Below the pieces are notes generated by a model. That model did no database searches. It was not told where the DNA came from and saw nothing but the letters and a program-made list of their open reading frames with translations. A program made the position numbers and the translations under genes. This document shows, piece after piece, positions 4,777 through 46,055 of a DNA stretch of 64,000 bases (the stretch's first letter is position 1; each line of letters starts with the position of its first letter). The DNA comes from Nemertoderma westbladi (Eukaryota > Animalia > Xenacoelomorpha), in NCBI GenBank assembly GCA_032718475.1, contig JAUCBJ010003673.1, positions 3,246 through 67,245 of the forward strand. The letters are read 5' to 3'.

Positions 4777-4858
4777 ACTTATAACTGTATATTTACTTAC
4801 CGTATTAATATCTTCCCATACTCAAACTGTACCTACGCAAATTTAAGTCACTTACTCT

Positions 4859-16420: not shown

Positions 16421-16492
16421 CGCCACCAGCGGGGATCGAACCCGCGTCTCCCGATAAACGTTCGGGTATGCTAACCGCTACACCACGGAGGC
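16421..16492 (-). ncRNA. tRNA-like Pol III unit, copy 2 (Asp/Val-like body, non-canonical anticodon loop ACGTTTA)
   Basis: GCCTCCG-TG-GTGTAGCGGTTAGCAT-A-CCCGA ACGTTTA TCGGG-AGAC-GCGGG TTCGATC CCCGC-TGGTGGC-G folds as a cloverleaf. A and B boxes intact, TTTTTT about 6 nt downstream. Lacks U33 and purine-37. Confidence 0.6.
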
Positions 16493-24717: not shown

Positions 24718-25145
24718 TGTGAATTGTATATGAATACTACAGTAGGTGGTGTAACATATGGTGGGACCATTTTATTTTGATTACCAGGTGAAATGTTTTT
24801 GGAAATGTGTTAGATATCAAACGTGCAACTGCAAAGCACTGCGTGCCAACGTGCAAAATGTGCAACTATCAAACTAGTTAGGAACCTGGCAATTCCGGTA
24901 AAATTCCGGCCGGAATTGACCCCATTCCGGCAATTCCGGCCGGAATCGGGCAAAAACCGCCGGAATTCCGGCCGGAACGGAATTCCGGGACATCCCTAAT
25001 TGTGTGCAAAGTAGCACTTTGCGAGATTATTATGTACCGAGCGCAGCGAGGGAGGTTTACATACATAAACAAGGGTCTTTAACGTTGAAAAGTGACCTTT
25101 GCAAGCAATGATGTATGTAATTTTGTTACATTAAATTTTGTACTT

Positions 25146-27782: not shown

Positions 27783-28655
27783 AATGATGCCGCTTCTGTG
27801 CTACCAGGGTCTGGTGGCAATAGCAACAGAAATATGAGCTATACTCTTCCAGGTTGGAATGAGTACGTACGACCATTCAAAGAAGATGCTATATTCTGGC
27901 ATAGTTTATGGTTATCCGCAGGAAAACCTAATGCGAGTTCGGGTAATTTATTCCACATGAGACGTACTTCTAGAGCACAGTATAAGTTTGCTGTGCGTAG
28001 ACTGACAAGAAAAGTAGACTTCATAAATAAGGATAAGTTACTAAATGCCTGTTTAACAAATTCTAGTATTAATATATTTTCAGAAATACGTAATTTAAGA
28101 GGCAATAGCTCCACTGGTTGTAGTTCTACTGCAGACGGTGCAACTGATGATATTTCTATTGCTAATGAGTTCGCTTCTATATATAGGGATTTATTTAATA
28201 GAGGGTACGACTCTGATTTATCATTTATTGAAAGTAGTATTAATGAACAAATTTCTAGTTTAAATTCATCGGTTTGTGATTTAATTACACCGGAATTAGT
28301 TACTTGTGCACTAAATAAGTTGAAATCTGCTAAGTCAGATGTCGATAATATTCTTAATTCAGACTGTTTAAAGAACGCTAACGTTGATTTAGCTGAACAT
28401 CTTTCTAACCTATTCAATGCATTTGTAGTACAGGGATATGTACCATTATTTTTATTGCGTTTTGCTCTTGTACCAATAATTAAAGATAAACTTGGGAGTA
28501 TGACATCTTCTACTAATTATAGGGCTATTGCGATTTCATCATTAATTATTAAAGTGTTTGAATGGGTTATACTAATTTCTCATGAAGATAACTTTAAATT
28601 AGATGAACTACAGTTTGGTTTCCAGCGCAACTCTAGTACCACTATGTGTAGCTGG
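27783..28655 (+). mobile_element. Non-LTR retrotransposon A, 5'-truncated ORF2, part 1 (clade unresolved)
   Basis: PGWNEYVRPFKEDAIFWHSLW, VPIIKDK, NYRAIAISS and QFGFQRNSST (early RT motifs). The reading continues at 46056 (..CSW|AAKETI). Confidence 0.9.
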
Positions 28656-28932
28656 TGTAAACACCCTAACACTCGGGTCCCCAATGCGACAAGGTGAGCT
28701 GACTGCCTTGGCAGATAAGCTTTCTCTTAGCGCAGTGGGTGTTCAAGAGTTCCGAATGCAGACTGGACAGACTGATGAGGTTCTGATTAAGGACATGGGG
28801 GGCGGTTGGCGACTCGCCCTCGCGTCAGCAGAAGATAGTGGCAATGGTGGAATTGGTCTATTGATGAATCCAACTGCACATGCAGCATTGGACAAAATAG
28901 ACCAAATCTCTAACCGCATCATCCGTTCATCA
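28656..28932 (+). mobile_element. RTE-like LINE B, 5' part (start of the APE endonuclease)
   Basis: VNTLTL...GELTAL...AVGVQEFR...GNGGIGLLM...ISNRII is an APE N-terminus pattern. It starts right after the TSD GTAGCTGG (28648-28655). Confidence 0.8.
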
Positions 28933-29944
28933 TGTTCAGTAAAACATATTCCTACTAAATGAAGAGACAGTAACAAATACACGAATCCTGCAATATCATA
29001 CTATAAAGTTTGTGAATCAAATCATAAATCCGACCTTCTCACCAAAACAGTAAACTCCAAGTAGGCGAATATATTGCAGTATCGGTCTCTTATAACCGGT
29101 GAGGCAGAAAACAGTCTACGAACGGACAAACTTCGATAAAACAAAATCCCGCGCAGCGAATCCTAAAATCAGGCTGACTCACTGACGGACTAAGGGGCTT
29201 GTATACTTTGCCGCGGTGTGATTTATATGGTTGGGCGAAAAGGACGCTAGCTAGGTGCAGAGATCTGGAGATGTCTAACTAGCGGGCAAAGTGCAGTACG
29301 GACAAAAGTTAATTTTATATATTTTGAGGTGTAAATAATTTCTAACGCGCGTGTGTTAATTCTGAACCGTCAAGATCAGTTTTGCTCCTTCATATATATA
29401 ATTACTGGGTACGGTGTGCATTTTACGAATATTCTAATTTTGTAACTTGTAGGTCCAATACTCACGAATGATAAGGCTCCTTCCCCTCTTGCGTATTTCC
29501 CCTACAAGTTCTAATGCAATGGACACCGTTGTACTACAAATAGTCACAGACGCACCTGTACTTAGCAAGAGTTAGGCGTACAGTTTGCTGCACCCTACCA
29601 ATGTGTATGCTTTGTACCGGTGTGCCTACGTCCTATCTGCGTACTAGTATCTCTGCCTGCTTCCCCCGTAGGAATATGAAGGTCTACTGCGGTTTTTTCC
29701 TGAATTAAAACAGTACAGTCCCTAGATGTAATTTTAGGCGTACAGCGTGTCACTACCTCTACCTTCGATCTGGGCGAATAACTAAGAGTGATATTGCGGG
29801 TTGTCTCCTGTCTACATTCCTTAGATGTTCCCGTTCATTGCTGTGGCCCGATGTTTAGCCAGCCATCCTGTCCCTCAGTTGAGTTCACCGTGGTGAAGCA
29901 TAGTAAAACAGATAGAAAAAGGGCAGATTAGCGATAATTCTGAC

Positions 29945-30215
29945 TTTATTACAGAAGATATACATAAACGTAACAAGAAACTAATAGATAACTAATAAAG
30001 ATAATCTAAAGCACGAATGATTGAGATATAGACTGAGGTTTAGATATAACTAATGAACGAAATCGCACCTTTTATACCAAATTTGTGCCGCAATCAATCG
30101 AGAAAATTCTCGATTGTTCTATGAGTTCTAACAGGTTTTTAAAGATAGCTATTGGTCCAACGAATATATAACTTGTACGACATTGGTTACAATCTAATAA
30201 CTACAATCTCATTGG
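29945..30215 (-). promoter_or_regulatory. LTR Pol II promoter and polyadenylation signals (also present in the 5' LTR)
   Basis: Minus strand: three CCAAT boxes ~30 bp apart (30151, 30182, 30211), TATAAAA at ~30069-30075, Inr-like TCAGT at ~30034 and AATAAA at 29945-29950. Confidence 0.65.
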
Positions 30216-30286
30216 TTAATCTTACTTCGAGCAAATGCAATTAATTTGTAGCGGTCAATTTAAATGAGTTGAAATTCTGCACGCAC

Positions 30287-30371
30287 AAAAAATAATTCGC
30301 ACCTACTAGGATTCGAACTCAATACACACTACATATAATTTCCAACGCTCTACCGACTGAGCTACTGAACC
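30287..30371 (-). promoter_or_regulatory. tRNA-derived Pol III cassette in U3 of the 3' LTR
   Basis: TAGCTCAGTCGGTAGAGCG (A box with perfect D-arm), GAGTTCGAATCC (B box) and TTTTTT terminator. Confidence 0.7.
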
Positions 30372-31142
30372 ACTTGAATAATCATCGTACAAATAGATAT
30401 AGCAAATACAAATGAGGACTTAATGTAATCTTTTAACAAAGTTAATTCGAATAAAATAAAAATTTTGAAAATCCACGGCATTTAGAGAATATAATTCTAT
30501 ACCGCTCCATGAAAACAGGATATTATCGTGCATAAAATATACGGTTTTCACCAATAATCAATCAAATTATAGAATACTTAGGGCGTACTTACATATTTAC
30601 AAATTAAATTTCAAACAATACTTCCTTTCTACATAATGATTCGATACAAAATAATTACAAATTCAAACTTTACATATTTAAAGCTTTACTAAGTAAGTAC
30701 AATATAAATCTAAATTAAATTCACCAAAATAAATCTATTTCATCTCGATATTGCGAAATTCAAATAATTACAAATACAAATAAATGAAAATCATAAGAAA
30801 GGCTCGCGAGTCTTCCATCTACTATTGCATCTCAAATATTGCACTTAGACTTAAATTCAAGTAATTACAAATACCTTGTGCCTAAATGTAGATTGCATAA
30901 GTTCGGAATAATTACAAATATGAGTCTTTCTAAGTACAAAACTTTCTAACTATAAAACCTTCTAAATACAAAATATAACACTTTACAAATGAAACTATAA
31001 GAAAGGCCCATGAGTCTTCCATTACAAACTCCGTTACAAACCGTACCGTTACAAACTTACTAAATATAAAATATATAACTCAAATAAATCACAAATTCAC
31101 AAGAAAGGCTCACGAGTCTTCCGTCCACCCTTGCCCTCCCTT

Positions 31143-34100
31143 TTATCGCTTAGTAGATCGAGCCCTGCCGCGTCCTCGAAAACTGCGCACAGGTGACTTT
31201 GCTCGCGATATGGGACTCGTGGGGCGAGTCACTGGTTTTGCTTGTACATTGGGAGACGGTGCGACCGTTTCCTCACAAATTCGTCTATTTGGTATCCCAA
31301 AACCTCGACCGATTCCTCGTGACCGATCAGTTGTCACTACAGTTGGTAAAACGTCTGGGAACGCGCGGGAAGCGGACGACGCAGACCCAAGAGTAGCTTG
31401 CGCCCCCTTTTGATCAGCTGGTGTATGTCCCGATCCTCCTGTTGGTTCTCTAGGAAGCGATACCGTATCCCGAGTAATTCGAATGGTCGGCTCAACTCCC
31501 TTGCGTTCTTCTATATTAATAGACTTCTTTAATTGTTGGCTCACTTTCTGGACCCTTATGATCCTACCCTGCCCGTCCTCCCGAGGGTGACGTGCAGACG
31601 GCGCAACCGGAGTGGCTGGTATATTTGTCGCCTCTAGGATCTCCTCTTCCTCGAATACGCTCGCTCGTATACGTTTGTGGTAAAACGCGGCTCGGTATGC
31701 CCACGCGACGGTTAACCAAGCTCCCTTATTCCGCCTTTCAGTTCGGAAACGATCAAATTCACCATACGTGATACGATTCACAACTTTCTGAAAATTCCAC
31801 GTATTTTTATTGTCCGGGTGAATCTGTAACAGATACTCGCGCACCACTCTAAATCCACTATCGTGAGGCAAAATATCGACTACCTCGATAAGTTCGTCAT
31901 ATTGGGGCATAGCGGAGATGTATCCTTCCGACATCATCGTTTGGGGATTTACCGCCCAAAATCCAAGATGCGCTCTCATCGGAAATCGTCTTCTATGTGC
32001 CGATACATGTTCGTCGGCTAAATCTTCCCACTCATCGAATAGTTTTCTCACGAGTTTTACAGATTCGTGTTCATAAGGTATGTCTCTTAGTTGGCATTCA
32101 GATGCTCGATGCCCTTTTATATTGCAATAAGTACATTGAGCCATAAATCTCCAGCAAGTATAAAAGGTATGAGACCCTTGATCTCCACACCATCCACAGA
32201 TTAGTTGAGTCGTAGTAATGTGCTTTCCACTGCACTTGGTCAAATGATGTCCAGCGACGCCACATTTACTACACATCGTATTGGCAGGGTACCACACTCG
32301 TTCGTATATAAGATCTCCAATTGGTCGAGCGCTTCCTCCCACACTATAATCATAATCATCTGGATCTATGGGTTGGTATGTTTCTGAAGGTTGTATACAA
32401 ACTACAGCATCTGTTGCTTCAAGTTGTCGAATCTCCGTCTGAGATTTCTTCGGGAGGTTCCTTTCTATCTCAAGAAGTTCCTCTAAAGGATCGTCAGTGA
32501 TCGTTGTCGTTACTTCGAAATCACCACCAAGGTGACCGATAGGCGCGCGCGTCTGCCGTGATTCATCCATAACCTCCACGATACGTTCTCCTTCATAGGG
32601 TAACAATGTAAACATAGATGGTCTTTCGATAAGAGATCCCGCACAGCGAAGATACACGTCTCGAAATATACTAAATCCTGCTCGAGTAAAGGCATTACAC
32701 TGAGCGTCGGAGTTGTAGAAGGGTTCAAGAAATCGTCTAAACACGTCGGTATGAATTCTCCCTTCCATGTAGAACATATGATCTTCTCCGAGACAAAGTG
32801 GATGTCTTTTAAGAGTCCGAGACACAATGTCGGCGATTAAGCAAACATTCACTGACGACTCTATTGCTAAATAATATTGTAAGACCGCTCTTGGAGGTGA
32901 CGTAATAGCCCAATACACGCATCCTCTCCATTTGAGCTGTGATTCAAACTCACTCATATCTGGAGTATCACCTTCTCCATAAGTCTCAATATACTTAGCT
33001 CTCTTACTTTCCTTATAATCCCAATTGAATAACAGGTAGGAAATGTAACCAGCTCCAGTCTTCTGAGTAATATTCTCACGAAAATATCCCTGTTCTATAG
33101 ACCACAAAATAAGAGGTCGAGTGTCGACGTACGGTGTCGGTAGTCGGTCATCGCTGTCCGTCATGCCGGCAAAGTCGCTAATTAAGTCCTCTCTTACTCC
33201 TGATCCAATCTTTACGACAGTTTTATCTAAAATCATATTTCTTACCATCTTCGGTAGCATTCTAGCATCGATATTACAAGCTTGGTCCATCTTCTTTACT
33301 ATGTCAGTGATGAGATGGTGTCGCTTTGTATTTGCTGGAGGTATCGGCATTCGTTTGTCGCTCCTCTGTCTACTGAAAACGTGCAAGACTCCGTCCGCCG
33401 CTCTAATTTGTATAGTCTTAGAAGTCAAACTCTGTTGATGACTGCCGCCCTCGTTATCGTAAAACATGTAACCATTTTCCTGAAACGATCTAAACGTTCT
33501 ATTCCATTCGTCCAACAATTCTTCCGAAGGTTGCCAAATCTTCTCTATGTCCTTATCATCTTCGAAACGAATAACCTTACCTCGCCAATCCATGGCAATA
33601 TCTGTATCCGACTCGAAGGTTCCAGTTCCAATCCATAAACGAATTGTTCTGGTTAAATATCCTTTCAAATTACTCGGAGCTATATCAGCACCAGCTCTAT
33701 CCAGTTCCCTAAAGTCTTGAATATGAGGTGGAACGTTATACACGACCTTTTGAGTAATATGTCTACGTAAATCATATATCTTACTCATATCGCTAAAAAC
33801 AACTGCAGGAAGGAACTCCAAGTTTGAAATGATTTCTGGATGATCCACGATGGGTATTTCGTACGTCGTATCCTGTCGGACTGGTATACTAATAGGAAAA
33901 TTGAGTGTCGTACTCAATGGTTTCGTAGTCGAAGTACTATATGGTTGCATTTCTCTTGTCCTCTCCGGGGATGCAATCTGTAGTCTCTGAATAACGTTTT
34001 GAGCAAAGTTTATGCTCTCGAAAACTTCCGGTGTCATCTCCTTAGCTGGAGTTTGATCGTGTGACGTCCAATGGTAAGGTAGGCTCGCGAGTCTTCCGCC

Positions 34101-34868
34101 CCATTCTACCATCTCACCTTTCTCGAAAGCCTTGTAGGCTCTGTATAGGCTAAGAGCTTCTTTCTTTTCGCGGGTTGACTGATTCGCCTCGTCCAGCATA
34201 AGTTCAAATGCATCGGGTTCAACAACCTTAGGTGGGTAAACGACAGTTTCTCCCGCCTTTGGTCCAGTCATAGCAAACGAATGATATGGATTTGATAAAG
34301 GATACCCTCCTTCCTGGTAGCGTAGTTGTTGATGGTTCGAACACCTCGCCAATATCGGTTCGGGATTTTCCTTATTCAAACGCATTGGAATCGCATTTCG
34401 TTGTTCGCGCATACAAGAACCGCATTGATAATAAAGTTTATAAACTGAAAATGCTTCCTTGGTTTCTCTATCATCCCCTCGAGTTCGTCTGTAAAGGTGC
34501 ATTCCATCGAATTCATCGCGTACCGCAGGCATAGGTTCGTGCGCCTTTAGGTATTGCATGGTATGATACAAACGACTAATTTCAGTATCGGGGTCTTCGC
34601 TAATGTCTCCCGTATCACACAAAGCGTCGTACGGGTAAAGTTCATTGAAGGTTTTGCACAAACTTTCGATTCTTTCATTTAATGCGTTTTGCCTTCTCTT
34701 TAATACATTCGAGTCATATTTAGTTCTCGCGAGTTTCGCAGTACTTTCTGATAATTCCTTTATACCAAATATAGTGTAGTCTTTGGCTCCAAATCTCTCG
34801 AATCGCGCTGCTGCTTCCTCTTGGATATCATATCCCCATCTCGGCTCTCCATGTATCTCCTTCTCCAT
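31143..34868 (-). CDS. Extra ORF of the LTR element: DEDDy (WRN/Mut-7/EXD-like) 3'-5' exonuclease-like domain, three CCHC-type zinc knuckles and a basic disordered tail
   Basis: Uninterrupted ORF (open from 34976, first ATG 34868). Exo I FYDNEG, TIQIRAADGVLHVF, Exo II LPKMVRNMILDKTVVKIGSGVREDL, YVDTRPL, Exo III-like QYYLAIES. Knuckles CSKCGVAGHHLTKC, CGWCGDQGSHTFYTC, CTYCNIKGHRASEC. Confidence 0.75.
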   Translation of the reverse strand: MEKEIHGEPRWGYDIQEEAAARFERFGAKDYTIFGIKELSESTAKLARTKYDSNVLKRRQNALNERIESLCKTFNELYPYDALCDTGDISEDPDTEISRLYHTMQYLKAHEPMPAVRDEFDGMHLYRRTRGDDRETKEAFSVYKLYYQCGSCMREQRNAIPMRLNKENPEPILARCSNHQQLRYQEGGYPLSNPYHSFAMTGPKAGETVVYPPKVVEPDAFELMLDEANQSTREKKEALSLYRAYKAFEKGEMVEWGGRLASLPYHWTSHDQTPAKEMTPEVFESINFAQNVIQRLQIASPERTREMQPYSTSTTKPLSTTLNFPISIPVRQDTTYEIPIVDHPEIISNLEFLPAVVFSDMSKIYDLRRHITQKVVYNVPPHIQDFRELDRAGADIAPSNLKGYLTRTIRLWIGTGTFESDTDIAMDWRGKVIRFEDDKDIEKIWQPSEELLDEWNRTFRSFQENGYMFYDNEGGSHQQSLTSKTIQIRAADGVLHVFSRQRSDKRMPIPPANTKRHHLITDIVKKMDQACNIDARMLPKMVRNMILDKTVVKIGSGVREDLISDFAGMTDSDDRLPTPYVDTRPLILWSIEQGYFRENITQKTGAGYISYLLFNWDYKESKRAKYIETYGEGDTPDMSEFESQLKWRGCVYWAITSPPRAVLQYYLAIESSVNVCLIADIVSRTLKRHPLCLGEDHMFYMEGRIHTDVFRRFLEPFYNSDAQCNAFTRAGFSIFRDVYLRCAGSLIERPSMFTLLPYEGERIVEVMDESRQTRAPIGHLGGDFEVTTTITDDPLEELLEIERNLPKKSQTEIRQLEATDAVVCIQPSETYQPIDPDDYDYSVGGSARPIGDLIYERVWYPANTMCSKCGVAGHHLTKCSGKHITTTQLICGWCGDQGSHTFYTCWRFMAQCTYCNIKGHRASECQLRDIPYEHESVKLVRKLFDEWEDLADEHVSAHRRRFPMRAHLGFWAVNPQTMMSEGYISAMPQYDELIEVVDILPHDSGFRVVREYLLQIHPDNKNTWNFQKVVNRITYGEFDRFRTERRNKGAWLTVAWAYRAAFYHKRIRASVFEEEEILEATNIPATPVAPSARHPREDGQGRIIRVQKVSQQLKKSINIEERKGVEPTIRITRDTVSLPREPTGGSGHTPADQKGAQATLGSASSASRAFPDVLPTVVTTDRSRGIGRGFGIPNRRICEETVAPSPNVQAKPVTRPTSPISRAKSPVRSFRGRGRARSTKR

Positions 34869-35529
34869 AATTAGAGGTGTAGTTACATAATCATTACTAC
34901 TAGAGGGAATACAACAGAGTTTGTAGTTAGTTGTGAGGAGACGTGAGAGTTTTCGTCTGCCCTTTTGGCTCGACAACGCTCTAACCTCCTACCCATAGCC
35001 TAAGATCTAGGGTTTCTTTAATGACACGCTGCTTCTTATCTAAAATTTTTTGCCGAAATAAAAACGAATTTAGGCTAAACTGGCTGTGAGTCTAAAATAC
35101 TCACCTTTTGATCCCAAACTATTATCAGAAAATAAGCAGTCAAGAATTAGTAATAAATATAGGGAAGTCTATTTTGACGTAACTTATTGAAACAAGACCG
35201 TGTAAAATTTAATTAAAATTTTTAAGAAAGGCTCGCAAGTCTTCCTCTCTTGTTTCTCTAATTTTAAGTTCCACCCCACTGTACCCTGAAATCTATTCAC
35301 TGGAGAAAATTTTAAAAATTTTTCAAATCCAAATGGATTGTCTAAAATTTCGAAAATGTCTCAATATTGTGAGTTCCAAGTAGAATTCCATTTCTTATAC
35401 CTACAAATCCCGCTCCTATGTGACACATAAGGGTACTACCCTCAATGTTCACATATAAAGACAATGGAATTCTACCGCTGTCCTTACTACAGTGTACAGG
35501 TACGTGGAAATCTATTTGTAAACTCCTAA

Positions 35530-38202
35530 TTATTTACTAACATTTGTTGGAGATTTGTAGTCTCCAGACTCGTTTCGAGTCTCTTCAAGAAGTACGAGAC
35601 GTTGAGTCGGTCTGTCTACTGTACGACCGTCAATTGTCCGTACCGTCACAGTTCTTGTTACTCCATCCATAGATGGATGTGTGTCTAAAATTACACCTGT
35701 TATCCAGAAGCGTCTTTTTAGATTCACTTCTGCTAACAGCACGTGATCTCCCGGCTTTAATGCGCGGGTGTTATTGTACCATGTTGTTCTGGCAGAAATA
35801 GAGGGCAAATAATGGTTTTGCCATATTTCCCAGAATTTGTTAGCTAGTAGTTGCGTGATTTTCCACGCTTTTCTACCGTAGCTATCGCCTTCCATTGGAA
35901 AAGAAATAGGCGTCAAAGTAGTCGGTGCCTGCATAAGCAGGTGTGCCGGTGTCAAAGCAAACTGGGATTGTTTGTCATCGGGTACTAATACTATTGGTCT
36001 AGTATTTAGTATTGCCTCGATTTCAACAAATAGTGTTGTCAGTTGGTCGTCTGTCAATATGTGGTTTACTGGAATGACCTTTGCCATGGCTGTTTTTATA
36101 GATCTAATCAATCTCTCCCAGACTCCGCCTCTCCATGGACTATCTGGAGGATTAAACTTCCAAACAATCTTGTAAGGACGTAGTTCGTTTGAGATTTGAT
36201 CATGATCTAATTTCTTAAAGGCTCTAGCAATTTCATTTCGGGCACCAACAAAGTTTGTCCCTTGGTCTGAGTACAAGCATTTCACTAGTCCGCGTCTAGC
36301 GATAAATCGCCGCAATGCTAGTATAAACGCGTTGGTGGAAAGATCCATCACACGTTCAATATGAACTGCCCTACTGGACATACATGTGAAAATCAGTCCC
36401 CAGCGTTTTACTAGTATACGTCCACGTTTCGTATGTATGGGACCAAAGCAATCAATTCCAGTCTCTGTAAAAGGTGGTCTGAATGCTTGAAGTCGTGCTT
36501 GTGGAAGTTCACTCATTTCTTGAGTACCTATTCTAGAGTGTACCTTTTTACAAATAATACACGTACGTGTCACTGAACTTAACGCTTTACTGGGTCTAAT
36601 TAATACAAATCTTGTACGTAAGTAGGAAAGACAGTGGTGTCTTCCAGCGTGTTTCAGATGTAAATGTGCGTCCAGTATCATTGCATGTTGTAATTCGTGA
36701 TGCTGCGGTATTATTATTGGGTATCTAAAGTTTGTGTTAAAGTCAATGTTTTGAAGCCGAGATTTATGACAAATTAAGCCATTATAAATTATCGGACTCC
36801 AACTCAATATTGGTGACGACTTGATTGGTTGACCTTGATTTATAGATGTGAATTCGCGTGCGAAATATCGCAGTTGGTAATGGCGAATTAATTTAATTTC
36901 ACACCTGTCAATCTCAGTCAATGTAAGTCGACGTGTAAAGTCGCGTTTGCCTTTAACGTATTGTACAAAACGTACAATCCACGCTAATTTTCGGCAAGCG
37001 TTTGTCCAAGAGTCTGTTAGGTTTACAATACGGTCGACGTAAGTATTTGTGACGTCATCAGGTAAGTCAATGGAGAATTTGGAAGGTTTTGATTTACTAG
37101 AAGGGCCCACGGGTCCGCCGGTAGGTATTCCCTTGTTGACTGTTAATCCGTCCGGGTCTACAAGTAATTTGTCCTTCTTTGTTTTCTTACCTTGATTGTC
37201 AGTACTTTGTAAGTCGATCGTTAATGGTGGTTTGAACTCTATGGGGTCACTGGGTTTCGGTAAACTTATTTTTCTGCCGATATTAATCCCAGGTCTCACC
37301 ATAGGTTGCAAGTTTGGTATGTCTCTTGAGCGCAAAGTAACACCTGTATTTACATTAGCGTAGGTACTACCCACATCTGTAATACATGAGGTTTCACTGT
37401 GCTTATGGTTACTCAAGTGTGTCAAATTTGGTAGTTTGTCAATACAAGGCCGCTCCAATAGAGAAACTGCGGCTTTACTATTTGTCAATATGTTACTAGT
37501 GTCTGGTAGAACATTTTGTGACATGTCTGGTAGAATGTTTCGCGGAACATCCGGCGAAATATCTAGTGACGTGTCTGGCAAAACGTCTGGTTGACCGTCT
37601 AGTAACGCGTCTGGCGATACGTCTGGTAACGTGTCTGGTTGTTTGTCAATAGAAGGCCGCTCCAATAGAGAAACTGCGGCTTTACTATTTGTCAATATGT
37701 TACTAGTGTCTGGTAGAACATTTTGTGACGTGTCTGGTAGAATGTTTCGCGGAACATCCGGCGAAATATCTAGTGACGTGTCTGGCAAAACGTCTGGTTG
37801 ACCGTCTAGTAACGCGTCTGGCGATACGTCTGGTAACGTGTCTGGTTGTTTGTCAATAGAAGGCCGCTCCAATAGAGAAACTGCGGCTTTACTATATGTC
37901 AATAGGTTACTAGTGTCTGGTAGAACATTTTGTGACGTGTCTGGTAGAATGTTTCGCGGAACATCCGGCGAAATATCTAGTGACGTGTCTTGCAAAACGT
38001 CTGGTTGACCGTCTAGTAACGCGTCTGGTTGACCATCTAGCGATATGTCTGGTGTAGAAAGGCTCGCAAGTCTTCCGGCGTTATCATCTGTCATCGATGG
38101 AATCTCTGGCTGACTCGCCTTCTCCCCAAGTTCTAAACTCACCTGGTGGATTAGCTGCTCCTTGTGACTTATCGTATTAGCTACACACGTCGTACTTGTC
38201 AT
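35530..38202 (-). CDS. Pol segment: repeat linker plus integrase (H2C2, DDE core, DUF5641-like); no RT or RNase H
   Basis: HLHLKHAG...CIIC, GIDCFGP, SDQGTNFVG, GGVWERLI, EAILNTRP and DGVTRTVTVRT. No YxDD or RNase H motif upstream. Confidence 0.9.
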   Translation of the reverse strand: MTSTTCVANTISHKEQLIHQVSLELGEKASQPEIPSMTDDNAGRLASLSTPDISLDGQPDALLDGQPDVLQDTSLDISPDVPRNILPDTSQNVLPDTSNLLTYSKAAVSLLERPSIDKQPDTLPDVSPDALLDGQPDVLPDTSLDISPDVPRNILPDTSQNVLPDTSNILTNSKAAVSLLERPSIDKQPDTLPDVSPDALLDGQPDVLPDTSLDISPDVPRNILPDMSQNVLPDTSNILTNSKAAVSLLERPCIDKLPNLTHLSNHKHSETSCITDVGSTYANVNTGVTLRSRDIPNLQPMVRPGINIGRKISLPKPSDPIEFKPPLTIDLQSTDNQGKKTKKDKLLVDPDGLTVNKGIPTGGPVGPSSKSKPSKFSIDLPDDVTNTYVDRIVNLTDSWTNACRKLAWIVRFVQYVKGKRDFTRRLTLTEIDRCEIKLIRHYQLRYFAREFTSINQGQPIKSSPILSWSPIIYNGLICHKSRLQNIDFNTNFRYPIIIPQHHELQHAMILDAHLHLKHAGRHHCLSYLRTRFVLIRPSKALSSVTRTCIICKKVHSRIGTQEMSELPQARLQAFRPPFTETGIDCFGPIHTKRGRILVKRWGLIFTCMSSRAVHIERVMDLSTNAFILALRRFIARRGLVKCLYSDQGTNFVGARNEIARAFKKLDHDQISNELRPYKIVWKFNPPDSPWRGGVWERLIRSIKTAMAKVIPVNHILTDDQLTTLFVEIEAILNTRPIVLVPDDKQSQFALTPAHLLMQAPTTLTPISFPMEGDSYGRKAWKITQLLANKFWEIWQNHYLPSISARTTWYNNTRALKPGDHVLLAEVNLKRRFWITGVILDTHPSMDGVTRTVTVRTIDGRTVDRPTQRLVLLEETRNESGDYKSPTNVSK
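37437..38050 (-). repeat. In-frame 207-bp (69-aa) tandem repeat, three copies, built from 12-bp LPDx subrepeats
   Basis: AAGGCCGCTCCAATAGAGAAAC at 37446, 37653 and 37860. Confidence 0.93.
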
Positions 38203-38262
38203 GTTGTCGTGTTTTATCGACGCTTGTGTAGTATAGTCTCGGTCGTGTGAAAGGGAATGAGT

Positions 38263-39603
38263 CTAAGTTGTAGTTAATAAACTACATGTACTTTGTATAT
38301 CGTCTTCCTCGTCACTTATATCCAGTGTGCGCACAGGCGCTCGAGTATACCACCCTATCGGCGTTCTACAGGCGTATGTGTTTCCCGCTACGACTGCCGA
38401 TGGTCTGGTTTCCCACACTTGATGTAGGTTGAATTGATCTGTCCCGATCAGCATTGCTACCGACCTATAGTTGACAGGACATTCAGGTACACCAAGGTGT
38501 CTGAAGTACTTACGGTCCTCCAAGGATTGTTCTGGGACAGGACCTAGTAGGTTACTAAAGTCCTTTGTGGCCGGAAAGGTTAAATCTTTAAAGGGTAACA
38601 AAGACCTCTCCTTTTCGCTATGTTGCGATTTCGGAAGAAGAGTGTCTAAGTTCAACTTAACTCGTGTCACTGGTATTGCACGTTGTCCATGCATACTACT
38701 TACGGTGTAACTGACGTTCTTACCTTGTCGGAGATCCGTCACAACATCAGCTACTTTCTCATCCACGTAGCTATGAGATGAGGCTGAATCCAGGATAGCG
38801 TAGATCCTTTTGCTCCCTTTGGTGCCAGTAATCTTGACAGGAATTATACTAAACCCCTTTAGTTGATCAGGCGTCAGAAGCGCAATCGATGGTTGTTCGT
38901 CTCCAGTATCAAAGTAAACGTCTTCGTCTTCCGACTCTTCATCCGACGATCCTGATTGTTCCGAGAAGCAATCTCTAATGTATGTCACGAAAGTCGGTGT
39001 TGTTTTTGACTCTCGACCCTTATATGCTGTGTTGCATCTTGCTGCCGCTTCCGGGTGTTCCCTGGTGAAGCGTTTGGTCGGCGTATGACTGTCTGTGTGG
39101 AGCAAACCGTCATGGTTGCGTCCACAGGAAGGACAGATGTCTGTATTTGGGCAGTCTTTACGGACATGTCCATGTAGCGTACACCGCCAACAAGAGTCCA
39201 ATGGCCGTATTTGCAGTCGTTGTTCCTCCGAGTTCAATTCGCGGAATAGTCGACAACCTCTCAGTTTATGGCTAGTATGTCGTTTACCTAGCCGTTCGCA
39301 ATATTGGCAACTGCTAAAGTCTGTGCTCAGTTGCTGTCGGATCTGTTTGGTTCCAATTGGTGCGGATACCTTATTACTGTCCGAAAATTGTCGGGTGTCG
39401 GTCGATGTTGCGTAGGTAACCGTCTTTGTGGATGTCATCGGTGGTTTTTGTCTGTTGGAGGATGGTAAGGTTATTCCTTCTGCCACAATATGTTGGTCCG
39501 TGTAGTTCGAACGCGTCTCGACTACTGCCTCTCTGGATATCATTAAGTAGACGTCTTCCAACTTCAAGAATCCGCCCCTCTCTTCTCGCTGATATTCTAT
39601 CTT
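38263..39603 (-). CDS. Gag nucleocapsid knuckles plus aspartic protease (in frame with the flanking ORFs)
   Basis: CQYC..H..C, CWRCTLHGHVRKDC and CPSCGRNHDGLLH (BEL pattern); AILDSASSHS active site, MLIGTD and RTPIGW. Separated from each neighbour by one in-frame stop. Confidence 0.88.
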   Translation of the reverse strand, partial: KIEYQREERGGFLKLEDVYLMISREAVVETRSNYTDQHIVAEGITLPSSNRQKPPMTSTKTVTYATSTDTRQFSDSNKVSAPIGTKQIRQQLSTDFSSCQYCERLGKRHTSHKLRGCRLFRELNSEEQRLQIRPLDSCWRCTLHGHVRKDCPNTDICPSCGRNHDGLLHTDSHTPTKRFTREHPEAAARCNTAYKGRESKTTPTFVTYIRDCFSEQSGSSDEESEDEDVYFDTGDEQPSIALLTPDQLKGFSIIPVKITGTKGSKRIYAILDSASSHSYVDEKVADVVTDLRQGKNVSYTVSSMHGQRAIPVTRVKLNLDTLLPKSQHSEKERSLLPFKDLTFPATKDFSNLLGPVPEQSLEDRKYFRHLGVPECPVNYRSVAMLIGTDQFNLHQVWETRPSAVVAGNTYACRTPIGWYTRAPVRTLDISDEEDDIQSTCSLLTTT

Positions 39604-42399
39604 TCACCACTCCCGACGAAGTCGATGGTGTAATCTTCCTATTATTTTCAATAGGACTGTCGGAGTGTTCGCGTAGTCAAGTTGTCCAATCGAGCGTAGT
39701 GTAGTAATGGCGTTTTTAATCTCGTCAGCTAATTTCAGTAAGTCAACGGGTTTTGTTATAGCCCCCCCCTTACAGAGTTCTTCTATCACTGACTTAGCCA
39801 TGCTTACAGTGCCTCCGTAAATCGAAGTTAAGCGATCGTACGCTAGTTCGAAGGCGTCTGGTACACCGACAAAGGTCTCCGCTAGACGTTTCGGTTCTCC
39901 CGTCAGCGTTTGTAGCAGGTAGTTGAATTTCTCCCTCGATGTAAAGGCGCACGTTGCTATTTGGGTTTCGATGTAGTCCACAAAGGTGTGCCAATGTTTC
40001 GAGTTACCGGAAAACTTAGGTGGTTGTTGCACCGGTAATCCTTGTCTGGCTGCGAATTTCGCTATCTCCTCGGCCACGTTCAAAGTTTCGCGTCCTTGGT
40101 TGGCAATCGAGTTGATGTTCTCTCGTCTTGGCGCTTTTCCTTGATACGAGGTGTTTCTCGAGGGTTGTTTTCTTTGCTGCTTCGGGTGTCTAGAGTGTTC
40201 GAACTCGTTACCTCGCGAACTATCAGTTTGAGTTTCTTCTAAACGTTCTTCTATCTGGGCCAACTTGTCTACAACTGGTCGCATTAGATCGGCGAATTGT
40301 TGCGTACTAATCGCGTCTGTTGGTTGTAACGCTTTCTGTGTTGGTGTATTGTGTGGAGGATTATCGATAAAGGAGTTATCTGAACGCTCACGTTTATATT
40401 CGTCGGCCGCTCCTGTTCTAAATACCTCGCGTTCCGGGTAATCCGACTCGCTTGAAGTACTACTGTCACCTGGATACGGTGGTCGACGTGCTCGCGTCCG
40501 TTGTGTCGTTCGAATTCTAACATTCCGTTTCGGAACATCATCCACTGTTCTCCGTTGTTTGGTAGGCTCACAAGTCTTCCTCGAAGTTGTAGATTGCGAT
40601 GTAAACTGATTAAACGGTGGTCGAATGACAGCGTTTGAATCTAAAGGCCTTGTAGGCCTAAACGTCATTGGGTACGTGTAATGCATAACGGGTTTTGGTG
40701 TCGAAGGTGGACTCACCTGTTTTGTCGTCAGTGGTGCAGGTCCGGTCAACAAACTACTACGATCTGTAATCGGTGGGTTACTTACCTTGACTTTCAGAAT
40801 GGGCGACGACGTTGCTCTTGGCGGTGTAAACTTGTCCGGAATAACAAACCTGTGTTCCGTCGCACCATGGATAGGAGAAATATTACTACTACCAGCAATC
40901 GAAACAGGTTCCTTAGTCGTAATCGGTGCAAACATAGGAGTTACTTGAGGGAATCTTTGACATAAGTCTTTTACCAATTGTCTTTCTCGCCCAGGTGCCC
41001 CTACACTTCCTTCCTTCATTCGTTCCTGAATTTGGCGGTGCCTTACCTCTATCTGGTCCAAATCATGTCCGTCACGAGATCTCATCGATCGATCGCAGGC
41101 TTGTAGATCCAGATCTTCCTTCGCGTTGGCTAATTCTCTCGCCTTCTTCTCGAGTTCGAAATGAAGTTTAACTTCTTTCTCGCGTTGTTCCGTCTGTTGT
41201 TGTTGCGCCTCGAACTCCGCTTGTCGTATAGCTGATTGAGCCTTTATTTGCCGTTTTTTCATCTCAGCTCTTACTTCCGAAATACGCTTGTGTTCTTCCA
41301 ACGCTGCTGCTCGTCGCTCTAAATCAGCCGCTGCCGCTTGTCGTTCCAACTCAGCTGCTGCCGCTTGTTGCACTAACTCAGCTGCCGCTGTTCGCTGTGC
41401 TATTTCTAGCTCCAACCTTTCCATCTCACCCGCTTCCAACTCGGCTTGTTCTTGCAGCTGAGAGATTCTCGCAACATTTGCAACGCGTAGTTTTTCTTCT
41501 TCTACCGCCGCTTGTGCCGTCAACAGTTGAGTTTGTTCCTCAATTTCCCGTTGTTGTCTATAGTGCTGTTGTTGCTGTCTGGAAATTTCTGACGTCACTA
41601 TACTTACCTCGCCAATTTCGCTGCGAATACTCACTAACGATTGGTCCAGTATTCCCGGTGCCGATTCGATTTGTACGGGTGAAGTTTCCCTCGTATATTC
41701 CGGCACGGTTTCCAAATCGCCGACGTCTTCGCCGCACATACGTAAGTGGTCCGTCAGATGTTTCAATTGTCCATCCAGTCGGTACAGTTCCTGTTCTTCC
41801 TCGGGCTGCAATAATTCGTCCGAAACTGACTCACCTAACAACTGGTCCGCTTGTTCCTGTTGTATCTGCCTAATCGTCGACTTAAACTGAATCAGTTTCT
41901 CTCTAGCGATCATTAGTTTCTCGAGGATTCTAAGTTGAGTATCCACGTCCTGTCTCTGTCTAGCTAGATCTTGTAGACCAATTAGATTATCTACGGACTT
42001 ATGTACTCTACTTTGTACTCTAACCTGGAGGGTGTAGAACTCAAACCGAGACATCGGAGCGGTTAACTCGTCTAATATGCGTTGGCCTTCCCCAATACTC
42101 CTGGTAATATGCGCCATGTAGCCTCCGACGCTTCTAACCACACTCTCCTGGCTTCCTACTGAACTTACCATGTCCGTTTCCCTGTATCTAGGTTGCGGAA
42201 CAGTTAGAAAGTCCTCGGTCCTGCCGTCGCCTCGTACTACGGCATCCGGTACTCCCGTTGGATGTACTGGTGACGCACACGGTGTAGGTTCGGTAGGCTC
42301 GCGAGTCTTCCCCTGTAGTTCTTCCGCTGCTGACTTATCTCCGTCGCATGAGTCATAGTCGGTAGGTGTATTCTTCGTATAGTCTTGTTTGTCACTCAT
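39604..42399 (-). CDS. Gag (long coiled-coil N-terminus plus DUF1759-like capsid region)
   Basis: 931-aa ORF containing PPKFSGNSKHWHTFVDYIE..EKFNYLLQTLTGEPKRL..AYDRLTSIYG. Confidence 0.88.
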   Translation of the reverse strand: MSDKQDYTKNTPTDYDSCDGDKSAAEELQGKTREPTEPTPCASPVHPTGVPDAVVRGDGRTEDFLTVPQPRYRETDMVSSVGSQESVVRSVGGYMAHITRSIGEGQRILDELTAPMSRFEFYTLQVRVQSRVHKSVDNLIGLQDLARQRQDVDTQLRILEKLMIAREKLIQFKSTIRQIQQEQADQLLGESVSDELLQPEEEQELYRLDGQLKHLTDHLRMCGEDVGDLETVPEYTRETSPVQIESAPGILDQSLVSIRSEIGEVSIVTSEISRQQQQHYRQQREIEEQTQLLTAQAAVEEEKLRVANVARISQLQEQAELEAGEMERLELEIAQRTAAAELVQQAAAAELERQAAAADLERRAAALEEHKRISEVRAEMKKRQIKAQSAIRQAEFEAQQQQTEQREKEVKLHFELEKKARELANAKEDLDLQACDRSMRSRDGHDLDQIEVRHRQIQERMKEGSVGAPGRERQLVKDLCQRFPQVTPMFAPITTKEPVSIAGSSNISPIHGATEHRFVIPDKFTPPRATSSPILKVKVSNPPITDRSSLLTGPAPLTTKQVSPPSTPKPVMHYTYPMTFRPTRPLDSNAVIRPPFNQFTSQSTTSRKTCEPTKQRRTVDDVPKRNVRIRTTQRTRARRPPYPGDSSTSSESDYPEREVFRTGAADEYKRERSDNSFIDNPPHNTPTQKALQPTDAISTQQFADLMRPVVDKLAQIEERLEETQTDSSRGNEFEHSRHPKQQRKQPSRNTSYQGKAPRRENINSIANQGRETLNVAEEIAKFAARQGLPVQQPPKFSGNSKHWHTFVDYIETQIATCAFTSREKFNYLLQTLTGEPKRLAETFVGVPDAFELAYDRLTSIYGGTVSMAKSVIEELCKGGAITKPVDLLKLADEIKNAITTLRSIGQLDYANTPTVLLKIIGRLHHRLRREW

Positions 42400-42485
42400 T
42401 TCGGTAGTTGTAAGTCAAGTAAAATGTGAGTGTCAAAGTATCAAATTTACCGTATTTATATTTAAACGGTACTAATTACAGTCAT

Positions 42486-42620
42486 ATAAAATTAGCCTAC
42501 CGGCCGATTTTATAGCAGATGGATAAAATTAGCCTAAGCGGCCAATTTTACAGCAAATAAATGTCACGGAATAAGTATATAATAAAATTAGCCTAGCAGC
42601 CAATTTTATAACAAATAAAT
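42486..42620 (-). repeat. Three ~30-bp direct repeats in the element leader
   Basis: TAAAATTAGCCTAxCxGCCxATTTTAxAxCAxAT at ~42487, 42524 and 42583. Confidence 0.7.
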
Positions 42621-43188
42621 CGGATAACGATATGCGTTATCAAAAGGTAAATTAAATACAATAATACGGACTAATTCAGCAATGAACAAAGAAATCGTAC
42701 AGAATGCATAAATACTTGAGACAGTGGAACCCACAATAATTTTAACTAATACGGTAATGCCTAACTTATTTATGCAACTTTTCAAACTCACCCACTCCAA
42801 TGATTCTCCAGAAAAACAGATTCCCAGATACAAACCGGACGTGAACCTTTCCGTTTCCAGCGTTGCGGACGAAGTGCGATTTTCCCAACCAAAGTTGTTG
42901 GGTTATCTATCTCCCAAACTTGCTAAACACGGTCTTGCTCTCGTTACAGTCTAGAAATGAGTTCTGAATCCTGAAAAAACAAAAGAGTTAGGTTTTACTT
43001 TTACGAAAATTTTGTACCGGTACAATATGGTATTTAAACCCTTTTAAACACCGGTATTCAATTCCAAAATATTTTACACGCGGTTCAAATCAAATTTTAT
43101 TTCAAAAAATTAGCACTTAGCTAATCAAATATAAATTTTACCTCAAAATACAAAAATTTTCAAATAACTTTAGTCCTACCGAACCGTA

Positions 43189-45129
43189 GTTCAGTAAAAC
43201 ATATTCCTACTAAATGAAGAGACAGTAACAAATACACGAATCCTGCAATATCATACTATAAAGTTTGTGAATCAAATCATAAATCCGACCTTCTCACCAA
43301 AACAGTAAACTCCAAGTAGGCGAATATATTGCAGTATCGGTCTCTTATAACCGGTGAGGCAGAAAACAGTCTACGAATGGACAAACTTCGATAAAACAAA
43401 ATCCCGCGCAGCGAATCCTAAAATCAGGCTGACTCACTGACGGACTAAGGGGCTCGTATACTTTGCCGCGGTGTGATTTATATGGTTGGGCGAAAAGGAC
43501 GCTAGCTAGGTGCAGAGATCTGGAGATGTCTAACTAGCGGGCAAAGTGCAGTACGGACAAAAGTTAATTTTATATATTTTGAGGTGTAAATAATTTCTAA
43601 CGTGCGTGTGTTAATTCTGAACCATCAAGATCAGTTTTGCTCCTTGATATATATAATTACTGGGTACGGTGTGCATTTTACGAATATTCTAATTTTGTAA
43701 CTTGTAGGTCCAATACTCACGAATGATAAGGCTCCTTCCCCTCTTGCGTATTTCCAGGACTCAAATTCAGGCATAAGATTAATGCTACGCCCAGAATTCG
43801 GCAATTTTAATTTACCAGGTCCCTAATACTAAGAAGAAATGTGTTAGTTTACTACAGTAGGCGTACGGTTACTAATAGCTAGCCTGGCGTCCTATCTAGA
43901 ATTTTGGTTACCTAGGTGGGCTTGGTAACTTCCTATCAGGATGTCGGCGGGGACACGGTAGATGTTAGTATCCCTAAACAGCCTCAATTTATTTGCGCCT
44001 AGTCGTAAACTGCCCTACCGCCTGAACGGTACAATCCTAATTCAGGTGAAACACAGTAACCCTCCTGGCCTACAAGTTATAATGCAATGGACACCGTTGT
44101 ACTACAAATAGTCACAGACGCACCTGCACTTAGCAAGAGTTAGGCGTACAGTTTGCTGCACCCTACCAATGTGTATGCTTTGTACCGGTGTGCCTATGTC
44201 CTATCTGCGTACTAGTATCTCTGCCTGCTCTCCCCCGTAGGAATATGAAGGTCTACTGCGGTTTTTTCCTGAATTAAAACAGTACAGTCCCTAGATGTAA
44301 TTTTAGGCGTACAGCGTGTCACTACCTCTACCTTCGATCTTTGGTCTTATACTTAGGTAGCAAGGCATCGAACGCTGTCTAACCTTTCAGGCGATGGGCG
44401 AATAACTAAGAGTGATATTGCGGGTTGTCTCCTGTCTACATTCCTTAGATGTTCCCGTTCATTGCTGTGGCCCGATGTTTAGCCAGCCATCCTGTCCCTC
44501 AGTTGAGTTCACCGTGGTGAAGCATAGTAAAACAGATAGAAAAAGGGCAGATTAGCGATAATTCTGACTTTATTAAAGAAGATATACATAAACGTAACAA
44601 GAAACTAATAGATAACTAATAAAGATAATCTAAAGCACGAATGATTGAGATATAGACTGAGGTTTAGATATGTATAACTAATGAACGAAATCGCACCTTT
44701 TATACCAAATTTGTGCCGCAATCAATCGAGAAAATTCTCGATTGTTCTATGAGTTCTAACAGGTTTTTAAAGATAGCTATTGGTCCAACGAATATATAAC
44801 TTGTACGACATTGGTTACAATCTAATAACTACAATCTCATTGGTTAATCTTACTTCGAGCAAATGCAATTAATTTGTAGCGGTCAATTTAAATGAGTTGA
44901 AATTCTGCACGCACAAAAAATAATTCGCACCTACTAGGATTCGAACTCAATACACACTACATATAATTTCCAACGCTCTACCGACTGAGCTACTGGACCA
45001 CTTGAATAATCATCGTACAAATAGATATAGCAAATACAAATGAGGACTTAATGTAATCTTTTAACAAAGTTAATTCGAATAAAATAAAAATTTTGAAAAT
45101 CCACGGCATTTAGAGAATATAATTCTATA
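43189..45129 (-). repeat. 5' LTR (~1940 bp)
   Basis: Direct repeat of 28933-30501, with additional segments at ~43757-44069 and ~44340-44393. Confidence 0.93.
44915..44999 (-). promoter_or_regulatory. tRNA-derived Pol III cassette in U3 of the 5' LTR
   Basis: Same A box, B box and T6 as 30287-30371. Confidence 0.7.
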
Positions 45130-46055
45130 TCCTTAGATCATCATAATGATGATGGGGTGATGATAACTCCACCTACTGGCTCCAGAAGTCGAGGAAATAA
45201 TGCCAAGTACCTATCTGATCTAGACTTTGCTGATGACTTAGGAGTACTCTCAGAATCATTAGAGGGAGCCCAACGGCTCCTCAGCTCATTAGAACATGCT
45301 GCTTCTAGTGTTGGTCTTTTTATTAACTCCAGAAAGACCAAAATTTTGACAGTTAACTTTGAAATTCCTCAGCAAGTCTCTGATCGGATGAGCATAAGCT
45401 CAAAGGATGGTATGCTTGAGCATGTGGACGACTTCTGTTACCTGGGATCATGGCTCCGGAAGTCAGGTGAGGACCTTCGAATACGTAAGGGAAAGGCATG
45501 GGCAGCCTTGAATAGGATTTCCAGGATTTGGAAGTCACCGAGAATTAATCGGAAACTTAAGGTCCGATTATTTAGAGCAGCAGTAGTTCCAGTACTCCTC
45601 TACGGGAGTCCATGCTGGGCTCTAACTGCTGAGGACACCAAATCTCTGGATGGCACATTCACAAGAATGCTACGCCGGGTTCATTGTGTCAAGTACAATG
45701 CACACATCTCCAACCAGACACTATATAACATTGGAGGTGTCTCATTGGTTCCCCCAAGCTTGACACTAGAACAAAATCGCCTCCGCTTTGCAGGACATTG
45801 CTTTCGCCGTGAGGACCAGCCAGTGCATAATCTTGTACTTTGGCAGCCTCATGGAGTGAATAAGCATGGTGGACAGCCCATGACTTTCTTGAGACGCATC
45901 TTAAAGGACACTGGCCTTGAAGATGCGGATGATCTAGCAAATGTCATGGGTGATAGGGAGTTGTGGCGGTGCAATTTTGTTGACAAGCCGGCACAGCATT
46001 CTTAAAAATGCAGCTGCAATGCAGCATGCCGATCCTAGTAGTAGTAGTAGTAGTA
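45130..46055 (+). mobile_element. RTE-like LINE B, 3' part (RT C-terminus, short 3' UTR, (TAG)n tail)
   Basis: DLDFADD, GLFINSRKTK, VDDFCYLGS, LLYGSPCW and RLRFAGHCFR; stop at 46005; (TAG)n tail, then TSD GTAGCTGG at 46056-46063. Confidence 0.9.

Follow-up and report, generated by a model that had tools for sequence, protein, structure and literature searches.

ORF3 and the element that carries it

The window (the whole stretch analysed, 64,000 nucleotides of Nemertoderma westbladi DNA) contains an LTR element with a gag in two parts, an integrase and a third gene, ORF3 (Table 1). A sequence-only reading had described an intact ORF of about 1240 aa in the env position, at 31143..34976. We found 1241 aa, intact, on the element's sense strand between the integrase ORF (end 35530) and the 3' LTR (30501-28933). 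The end at 31143 stood, but the start did not: 34976 falls in a stop-free leader of the stop-to-stop frame (34988..31143, minus strand, 1281 aa), and the first ATG is at 34868. The longest ORF in 1000 shuffles was 218 aa (mean 117). The claim that there is no obvious TM segment agrees with a best 19-residue Kyte-Doolittle mean of 1.38, and an env identity of ORF3 was ruled out on account of this lack.

Table 1. Features of the element and of ORF3, in order of the element's sense strand (positions in the window)
Feature	Position	Strand	Remarks
5' LTR, 1942 bp	43188..45129	minus	313- and 55-bp extras relative to 3' LTR
Candidate intron B	42971..44383	minus	GT at 44383, polypyrimidine-CAG ending 42971; run X4 joint, side 25
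Candidate leader exon, 179 nt, no ATG	42792..42970	minus	bounded by both X4 joints
Candidate intron A	34900..42791	minus	GG/GTGAGT donor 42791, polypyrimidine-TAG acceptor 34900; side 30
gag N-terminal part, DUF1759 (E 1.3e-10)	39604..42399	minus	ends at in-frame TGA
gag C-terminal part, three Cys/His knuckles and aspartic protease motif (ILDSAS, 38796)	38263..39603	minus	ends at in-frame TAG
Low-complexity spacer where RT and RNase H belong	36994..38262	minus	in frame with integrase
BEL/Pao-type integrase	35530..36993	minus	H2C2, D-D-E core motifs, DUF5641
ORF3	31143..34868	minus	1241 aa, intact
CxxC...CxxH cluster, aa 149-179	34332..34424	minus	in N-terminal 425 aa
DEDDy/DnaQ-fold 3'-5' exonuclease domain (predicted), aa 426-721	32706..33593	minus	motifs, profiles, structural matches
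Three CCHC-type zinc knuckles, aa 866-925	32094..32273	minus	zf-CCHC E 7.6e-4
3' LTR, 1569 bp	28933..30501	minus	AATAAA at 29950

The element has the BEL/Pao features of LTRs around gag-pol, a gag with DUF1759 and a triple knuckle, a protease motif, and an H2C2/DUF5641 integrase. The latter shares 32-37% identity over 445-483 aa with the BEL/Pao loci L001, L002, L004 and L006, and the domain order matches that of the complete relatives L001 and L006. The 5' LTR carries a TATA-like box (44704) and an AATAAA (near 44570). K2P between the LTRs is 0.007, but as a target-site duplication was not observed, their identity may not give the age of one insertion. As to a tRNA primer-binding site and a polypurine tract, the bases that follow the 5' LTR do not begin with TGG, and the purine-rich run before the 3' LTR is short. 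An Rfam scan of the element returned no ribozyme or other credible family (two sub-threshold rows), and no loci were found for the integrase in viral contigs.

The spacer at the RT and RNase H position holds three 207-bp tandem repeats (37429-38049). It has no stop in 374 codons of the integrase frame, versus 10-39 in the other frames, and 0/20000 shuffles were stop-free. No RT or RNase H motifs were found and the RT-RH profile was blank in all six frames of the element, which ruled out a hidden or frameshifted RT; residues 832-1516 of L001 (about 685 aa) had no significant counterpart. The element is BEL/Pao-derived and non-autonomous, and is not a complete BEL/Pao member. Of its earlier description as a BEL/Pao LTR element, the LTRs, gag and integrase were borne out, but not completeness, RT/RNase H being absent and gag being split by a stop.

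A candidate spliced message for ORF3

Two of the 15 joints listed (221 were found) are of the GT..AG type on the element strand, with consensus sites and a common 179-nt exon; each is represented by one contig with a short side (30 and 25), in run X4 alone, the kind of which is a guess ('DNA?'). The chance of such a joint is about 0.004-0.012 per joint. The acceptor of candidate intron A lies 32 nt ahead of the ORF3 ATG (joint 34899->42792), and candidate intron B takes out the U5 end and the primer-binding region. Judging from these sites, ORF3 is likely translated from an env-style spliced subgenomic message. Splicing of the LTR leader to 34900 would give a message without the primer-binding region, and the ORF3 protein would therefore act in trans, not inside Gag-Pol.

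Neither the absence of RT/RNase H nor the GT-AG joints had figured in the sequence-only reading.

A predicted exonuclease domain followed by zinc knuckles

The same reading had proposed a DEDDy, EXD-type domain with Exo I, Exo II and Exo III-like motifs, and these were found where it had placed them, at D471/E473 (33458/33452), D561 (33188) and Y666/E670 (32873/32861), the last with Glu instead of the usual Asp. A profile search with the domain matched EXD2 (E 0.021), aligned over Exo II, and Egalitarian (0.3), aligned over Exo I. The predicted model of this domain by itself (aa 426-721) was of low confidence (pLDDT 44, pTM 0.42), and 50/50 of the matches listed in a structural search with it were 3'-5' exonucleases or polymerase exonuclease domains, three of which we take to be such. 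The best was Aedes Nibbler EXO (Z 8.1, rmsd 3.9, 170 aligned), the only one among the 50 listed to reach Z 8; T. brucei RNase D (Z 6.3, 179 aligned, 13% identity), Egalitarian, EXD1 and Exuperantia were also listed. The top Foldseek match was EXD2 (E 5e-3, prob 0.85). No sequence or Foldseek match to a known nuclease reached E 1e-3, PDB searches with single sequences gave nothing or only trivial matches, a 626-aa model (pLDDT 35) gave no nuclease or other meaningful structural match, and a viral structure library yielded nothing significant. These findings support a DnaQ/DEDDy fold, as modelled, for aa 426-721. Of the domain checks that had been suggested, structure modelling and Foldseek led to exonucleases, whereas the Pfam scan of ORF3 named no exonuclease family; nor did Pfam detect the companion domains MUT7-C, HEAT, helicase or HRDC.

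Both the three CCHC knuckles predicted to follow the exonuclease domain and the CxxC..CxxH cluster predicted upstream are present. The knuckles span C866-C879 (CX2CX4HX4C), C891-C905 (CX2CX5HX4C) and C912-C925 (CX2CX4HX4C). They account for the match of ORF3 to the profile of 7c42 (T. brucei RNase D, TbRND), to which they contribute 20.6 bits and the exonuclease domain 0.3 bits. Nothing notable in Pfam or the PDB matched the N-terminal 425 aa, and the tail (aa 1071-1241) is basic, with 30 K/R versus 17 D/E. A motif after the knuckles was dropped as a candidate domain (5.5 bits versus 3.7 for shuffles).

Homologues and copies of ORF3

A phmmer search with ORF3 in 1.84 billion proteins returned five matches. 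Three of these (P0002, P0003 and P0004, known here as proteins alone) contain the exonuclease domain and three knuckles; P0001 and P0005 were dropped, their similarity being through the knuckles only. Although ORF3 is only 20-24% identical to the three homologues, the catalytic positions D, E, D, Y, D/E are kept in all four proteins, with D471, E473 and D561 invariant. Exo III has Glu in three of the four, and P0002 has the canonical Y-x3-D. A profile of the three homologues alone gave ORF3 60.9 bits, compared with at most 1.7 for 500 shuffles, and the Atlas model of P0002 aligned to DNA_pol_A_exo1 clusters (TM 0.70-0.73 by target). No close cellular parent was found among the 1.84 billion representatives. 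A word-indexed search found nothing for whole ORF3 or alignment A1 and only P0004 for A2, which is weak evidence because known members were missed. ORF3 had no loci in metagenomes, and neither it nor its homologues had any in viral contigs.

Contig pieces across sequencing runs indicated that the element is multi-copy. Those covering ORF3 were 82-95% identical to it, with 5 gaps per 500 substitutions in six listed pieces versus 46 per 120 in five non-coding ones; one divergent ORF3 piece had a net +1 shift. This depletion of indels, together with the remote homologues of the same layout, supports the conclusion that ORF3 is a conserved, family-borne gene and not a one-off capture, the two possibilities that the earlier reading had set against each other. 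The ORF3 differences private to the studied copy (11 of 40 rows listed) comprised 8 non-synonymous and 3 synonymous changes, which is what neutral decay would be expected to give. Derivatives of the element that delete the exonuclease region occurred in three runs. None of the 12 integrase-related loci has an ORF3 homologue, though 9/12 have <1 kb downstream, and complete BEL/Pao relatives such as L001 are without ORF3.

Possible functions of ORF3

Our tentative preference, held at rather less than even confidence, is that ORF3 is an accessory RNA-binding 3'-5' exonuclease, likely made from a spliced message, which likely weakens silencing by trimming the host's small RNAs or the precursors of these. 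In the manner of trypanosome RNase D, the knuckles would hold on to single-stranded RNA and deliver the 3' end of that RNA to an active site with two metals. By analogy with Nibbler and Mut-7, the substrate may be unmethylated pre-piRNA or siRNA, or slicer fragments.

We considered the possibility that ORF3 is instead a dead or weak pseudo-nuclease, an RNA-binding adaptor that localises, exports or shields the element RNA. Egalitarian, EXD1 and Exuperantia have a DEDDy-type fold and either lack catalytic activity or are not known to depend on it. For EXD1, this is stated in PMC5408684. The appearance of these three among the listed structural matches, the rank of Egalitarian as second profile match (over Exo I), the Glu for Asp at Exo III in three of four members, and a basic tail and three knuckles suited to RNA binding make this a doubtful but serious alternative. 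Yet five catalytic positions have remained acidic or Tyr across 20-24% identity, P0002 being canonical, a degree of retention that would be puzzling if no metal were bound. If ORF3 is active, it might also act as a replication helper that, within the particle or close to it, trims RNA or cDNA of the element itself at the 3' end. The DEDDy fold is also used in DNA proofreading and WRN-type enzymes, the knuckles resemble those of nucleocapsids, and such a role has been proposed for bdelloid ORF3s (PMC5408684) and for Dada transposons (PMC3706591). We nevertheless think it unlikely, as ORF3 is not part of Gag-Pol and is likely served by a message of its own, complete relatives such as L001 do without it, and the studied copy retains it while lacking RT.

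The closest folds among the matches listed are those of host small-RNA factors, and a mut-7-like silencing role was raised in PMC5408684; ORF3 could on these grounds be a domesticated silencing aid that helps the host or restrains the element, for instance in piRNA maturation. This is very unlikely in a family that is young (LTR K2P 0.007), multi-copy and diversified, all the more as self-limiting elements should be out-competed (PMC5408684). The reading to which we give the least credence is that of a recently captured host gene, carried as a passenger without function. The neutral-looking private changes and the exonuclease-deleting derivatives would fit it, but not the strong depletion of indels in the ORF3 pieces, the matching splice acceptor supplied by the element or the lack of a close cellular parent.

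A more speculative proposal, which we consider improbable, builds on the favoured anti-silencing nuclease: the RT-less BEL/Pao lineage would be one half of a complementing pair, supplying an anti-piRNA enzyme in trans. RT/RNase H would have been exchanged for the in-frame spacer, with Gag, protease and integrase retained, and pre-piRNAs would be destroyed by an active exonuclease that bears zinc knuckles and is translated from a spliced message of the env type. If true, an animal retrotransposon would encode an anti-piRNA enzyme of a widespread, unnamed exonuclease-knuckle family.

ORF3 bears on whether animal retrotransposons encode enzymes against piRNA silencing, and the element has kept it while being without RT. 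With its homologues it defines an unnamed exonuclease-plus-knuckle family, and through it a BEL/Pao lineage joins those in which nuclease capture is found. No assay of the rotifer DEDDy ORF3s is reported in the literature found. As an intact and self-contained protein with a functional analogue, TbRND, of solved structure, ORF3 is directly expressible and testable.

Comparison with known systems

As the sequence-only reading had suspected, DEDDy domains were already known in other LTR lineages: DEDDy ORF3s were published in 2017 for the Juno/Vesta and Athena/Terminon elements of bdelloid rotifers (PMC5408684), which lowers the novelty of ORF3. Like ORF3, with its predicted exonuclease and likely spliced message, these are non-env genes after pol that encode a DEDDy 3'-5' exonuclease without TM segment, keep the acidic residues with one D-to-E change, and are typically expressed from spliced messages (PMC5408684). 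By description, their motif is DEED (PMC5408684), whereas that of ORF3 is D-E-D-E(y). Furthermore, the host element here has a BEL/Pao gag and integrase and lacks RT/RNase H, and the domain is joined to an unassigned N-terminus of 425 aa and to three CCHC knuckles; the text of PMC5408684, figures aside, mentions no knuckles. In the openly accessible literature, apart from Repbase and the publication on Terminon elements, we found no exonuclease ORF in BEL/Pao and no DEDDy ORF3 with knuckles; the word 'exonuclease' is absent from PMC3118150 and PMC13524379. Within this scope, the BEL/Pao host and the knuckle fusion set ORF3 apart from the published DEDDy ORF3s. BEL/Pao elements (Belpaoviridae, Semotivirus) typically measure 4.2-10 kb with LTRs of 0.2-1.2 kb (PMC8742986), as against 16.2 kb and 1.6-1.9 kb here, and the third gene is nuclease-like here, not env-like.

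The best structural and profile matches, Nibbler/Mut-7/EXD3, EXD2, WRN-exo and Egalitarian (PF01612), are 11-15% identical to ORF3; Nibbler trims pre-piRNA 3' ends (PMC11347159). Dada DNA transposons (Laccaria, Ectocarpus) also carry a DEDDy exonuclease, but there it lies within the DDE transposase (PMC3706591), not in a separate ORF as in this retroelement. In layout, ORF3 resembles TbRND (PDB 7c42), in which tandem CCHC knuckles come after a DEDDy exonuclease and which is the nearest Atlas cluster for P0002 (0.87, a lead only). TbRND is a cellular enzyme for the trimming of guide-RNA U-tails; its four fingers follow a linker of ~28 aa and are required for binding RNA and for cleaving it efficiently (PMC7797062). 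In contrast, ORF3 is mobile and its three knuckles lie ~145 aa past the exonuclease domain, and the likeness of the two layouts is probably convergent.

ORF3 is a conserved accessory gene

ORF3 lies in an open frame of 1281 codons between the integrase and the 3' LTR of the element; the longest ORF among 1000 shuffles of the sequence reached 218 aa. The catalytic residues, the three knuckles and the Cys/His cluster that the sequence-only reading had placed in this protein were all recovered, and no transmembrane stretch was found in ORF3, as that reading had also stated.

Contigs of four runs from four studies matched the element (30/30, 30/30, 30/30 and 27/30 bins), one of these runs, X1, being possibly the source of the window itself. 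ORF3 pieces among those listed were 82% to 97% identical. Gaps numbered 5 per 500 substitutions in ORF3 pieces versus 46 per 120 in non-coding pieces, a comparison that rests on the longest pieces (11 of the 32 among those listed). Several observations count against constraint. One divergent piece carries a net +1 shift, and the window copy's own differences comprise 8 non-synonymous versus 3 synonymous changes. Derivatives with a deletion of about 2 kb in ORF3 occur in runs X1, X3 and X4; they lose the N-terminus and most or all of the exonuclease domain, retain the knuckles, and have net lengths out of frame. We conclude that ORF3 is a real, conserved accessory gene of nuclease fold.

ORF3 has a predicted DEDDy exonuclease-type fold

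The exonuclease was not named by Pfam, where the sequence-only reading had proposed to look for it, nor by single-sequence searches. A full HMMER search gave five matches, of which three remote homologues (P0002-P0004; 20-24% identity) share the whole layout, with three knuckles after the exonuclease domain. The five catalytic positions are conserved in 4/4 members, ORF3 included; at Exo III, P0002 has Asp and the other three have Glu. Against a profile built from P0002-P0004 alone, ORF3 scored 60.9 bits (500 shuffles, ≤1.7). The PDB matches of the family profile were EXD2 (E 0.021) and Egalitarian (0.3).

The check by model and Foldseek proposed in the earlier reading led to EXD2 (E 5e-3); the model covers aa 426-721 and is of low confidence (pLDDT 44). 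With the same model, 50/50 of the VIA-align matches listed were 3'-5' exonuclease domains, among them 5zo5, 3cym and 1vk0, which we take to be such domains; the top match listed was Nibbler (Z 8.1, rmsd 3.9, 170 aligned). The Atlas points to an exonuclease as well, both for the domain in the window (0.92-0.93) and, in a structural comparison, for P0002 (TM 0.70-0.73). Because these results, individually not strong, all agree, we regard a DEDDy exonuclease-type fold of aa 426-721 as a nearly certain prediction.

Features of the window, the element and ORF3
Feature	Position	Strand	Remarks
5' LTR	45129-43188	-	
3' LTR	30501-28933	-	
Spacer	36994-38262	-	1.27 kb
ORF3 open frame	34988..31143	-	first ATG at 34868, 1241 aa
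Catalytic motif residues	D471, E473, D561, Y666, E670		ORF3 residues
Zinc knuckles (3)	aa 866-925		ORF3 residues
Cys/His cluster	aa 149-179		ORF3 residues
ORF3 deletions	32584/32696 to 34709/34729		
Candidate joint	44383-42971	-	run X4, one contig, short side
Candidate joint	42791-34900	-	run X4, one contig, short side
LINE flanks	28603-28927, 45130-46005	+	
tRNA-Asn genes (2)	16109-16180, 16421-16492	-	within ~312-bp tandem repeat
Satellite arrays	1-4500, 6500-9500, 25000-27800		units 32, 16, 31 bp
Foldback (long inverted-repeat) element	19337-20408		~1.07 kb, arms ~91% complementary
Homologues P0002-P0004			558-715 aa, ENA records without name

The host element lacks a recognizable RT

Between the LTRs follow, in order, gag with DUF1759, a triple gag knuckle and a protease motif, the spacer, the integrase (H2C2, DUF5641) and ORF3. 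Over 1569 columns the two LTRs show 11 substitutions (K2P 0.007), and there are indels as well. A single frame, interrupted by TGA at 39604 and TAG at 38263, holds gag, protease and integrase; neutral decay alone predicts about 0.6 nonsense changes. On the element strand both LTRs start with TA instead of TG, and they end differently (5' LTR ...AACT, 3' LTR ...AACA). The U3 of both (~44920-45000 and the matching 3' LTR stretch) holds by eye a tRNA-like (SINE-like) fragment, not called by ARAGORN or Rfam.

Twelve metagenome loci were retrieved (integrase-core identity 39-52%); Pfam scans of three, L001, L004 and L006, showed ordinary BEL/Pao elements with RT and RNase H. For L001 residues 832-1516 (~685), the window contains nothing that matches significantly, and searching the element with a profile of RT and RNase H gave no match. 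L001 is a complete element (595-8079) with LTRs 99% identical, a single 1972-aa frame and no third gene, and is a useful comparator.

The spacer occupies the RT/RNase H place and is stop-free in the integrase frame only (0 stops in 374 codons; stop-free shuffles, 0/20000). It is low-complexity, fused in frame to the integrase, and contains three 69-aa tandem repeats. Contigs of three runs cover it, and one X4 contig spans the spacer-integrase junction, so that the spacer is not private to the window's copy. Possibly it is the hallmark of an RT-less family whose integrase is expressed separately or by read-through.

The element interrupts a LINE, without a target-site duplication around it. An endonuclease-like start, identified by eye and without a Pfam match, and an RT tail of the LINE flank it, the LINE middle being missing; this suggests deletion, or recombination between two insertions. 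Elsewhere, the satellite array at 1-4500 has no G on its plus strand (GC skew -1.0).

A candidate spliced message and the possible role of ORF3

Among the 15 listed of 221 joints (contigs joining two separate window positions), two, both from run X4, have GT..AG on the element strand, coinciding with consensus donors and polypyrimidine acceptors. They share a 179-nt exon without ATG. The joint 44383-42971 takes out the primer-binding region and 42791-34900 ends 32 nt upstream of the ORF3 start; the predicted leader holds seven short upstream ORFs. Run X4 is DNA by guess only; its sequence may be RNA or a processed DNA copy, and splicing would be implied in either case. If carried by one molecule, the two joints would provide an env-style route to a candidate subgenomic ORF3 message.

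ORF3, predicted to be a soluble exonuclease-knuckle protein that would be separately expressed and is retained by an RT-less element, fits a trans-acting RNA trimmer. RNA binding and efficient trimming by Trypanosoma brucei RNase D require tandem CCHC fingers behind its DEDD domain (PMC7797062), and pre-piRNA ends are trimmed by Nibbler (PMC11347159). We tentatively favour, by analogy, the reading that ORF3 weakens small-RNA silencing. ORF3 could instead be an inactive RNA adaptor, which we hold to be possible though rather unlikely, or, with a slightly smaller chance, a replication helper. A role in self-restraint appears improbable, and that of a mere passenger a shade more so.

A DEDDy exonuclease gene in a mobile element has precedents. 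For Belpaoviridae the ICTV profile names no genes beyond gag, pol and env-like ones (PMC8742986), and no BEL/Pao exonuclease was found in the literature searched, Repbase lying outside it. DEDDy domains also occur in Dada transposons (PMC3706591). What ORF3 adds in interest is its knuckle fusion, the splice evidence and an RT-less host element. Rodriguez et al. 2017 report DEDDy ORF3s with a DEED motif in bdelloid Juno, Vesta and Athena elements (PMC5408684), as restated in reviews (PMC6431247, PMC5718144, PMC6338049); the ORF3 described here would be a variant of that kind of gene.
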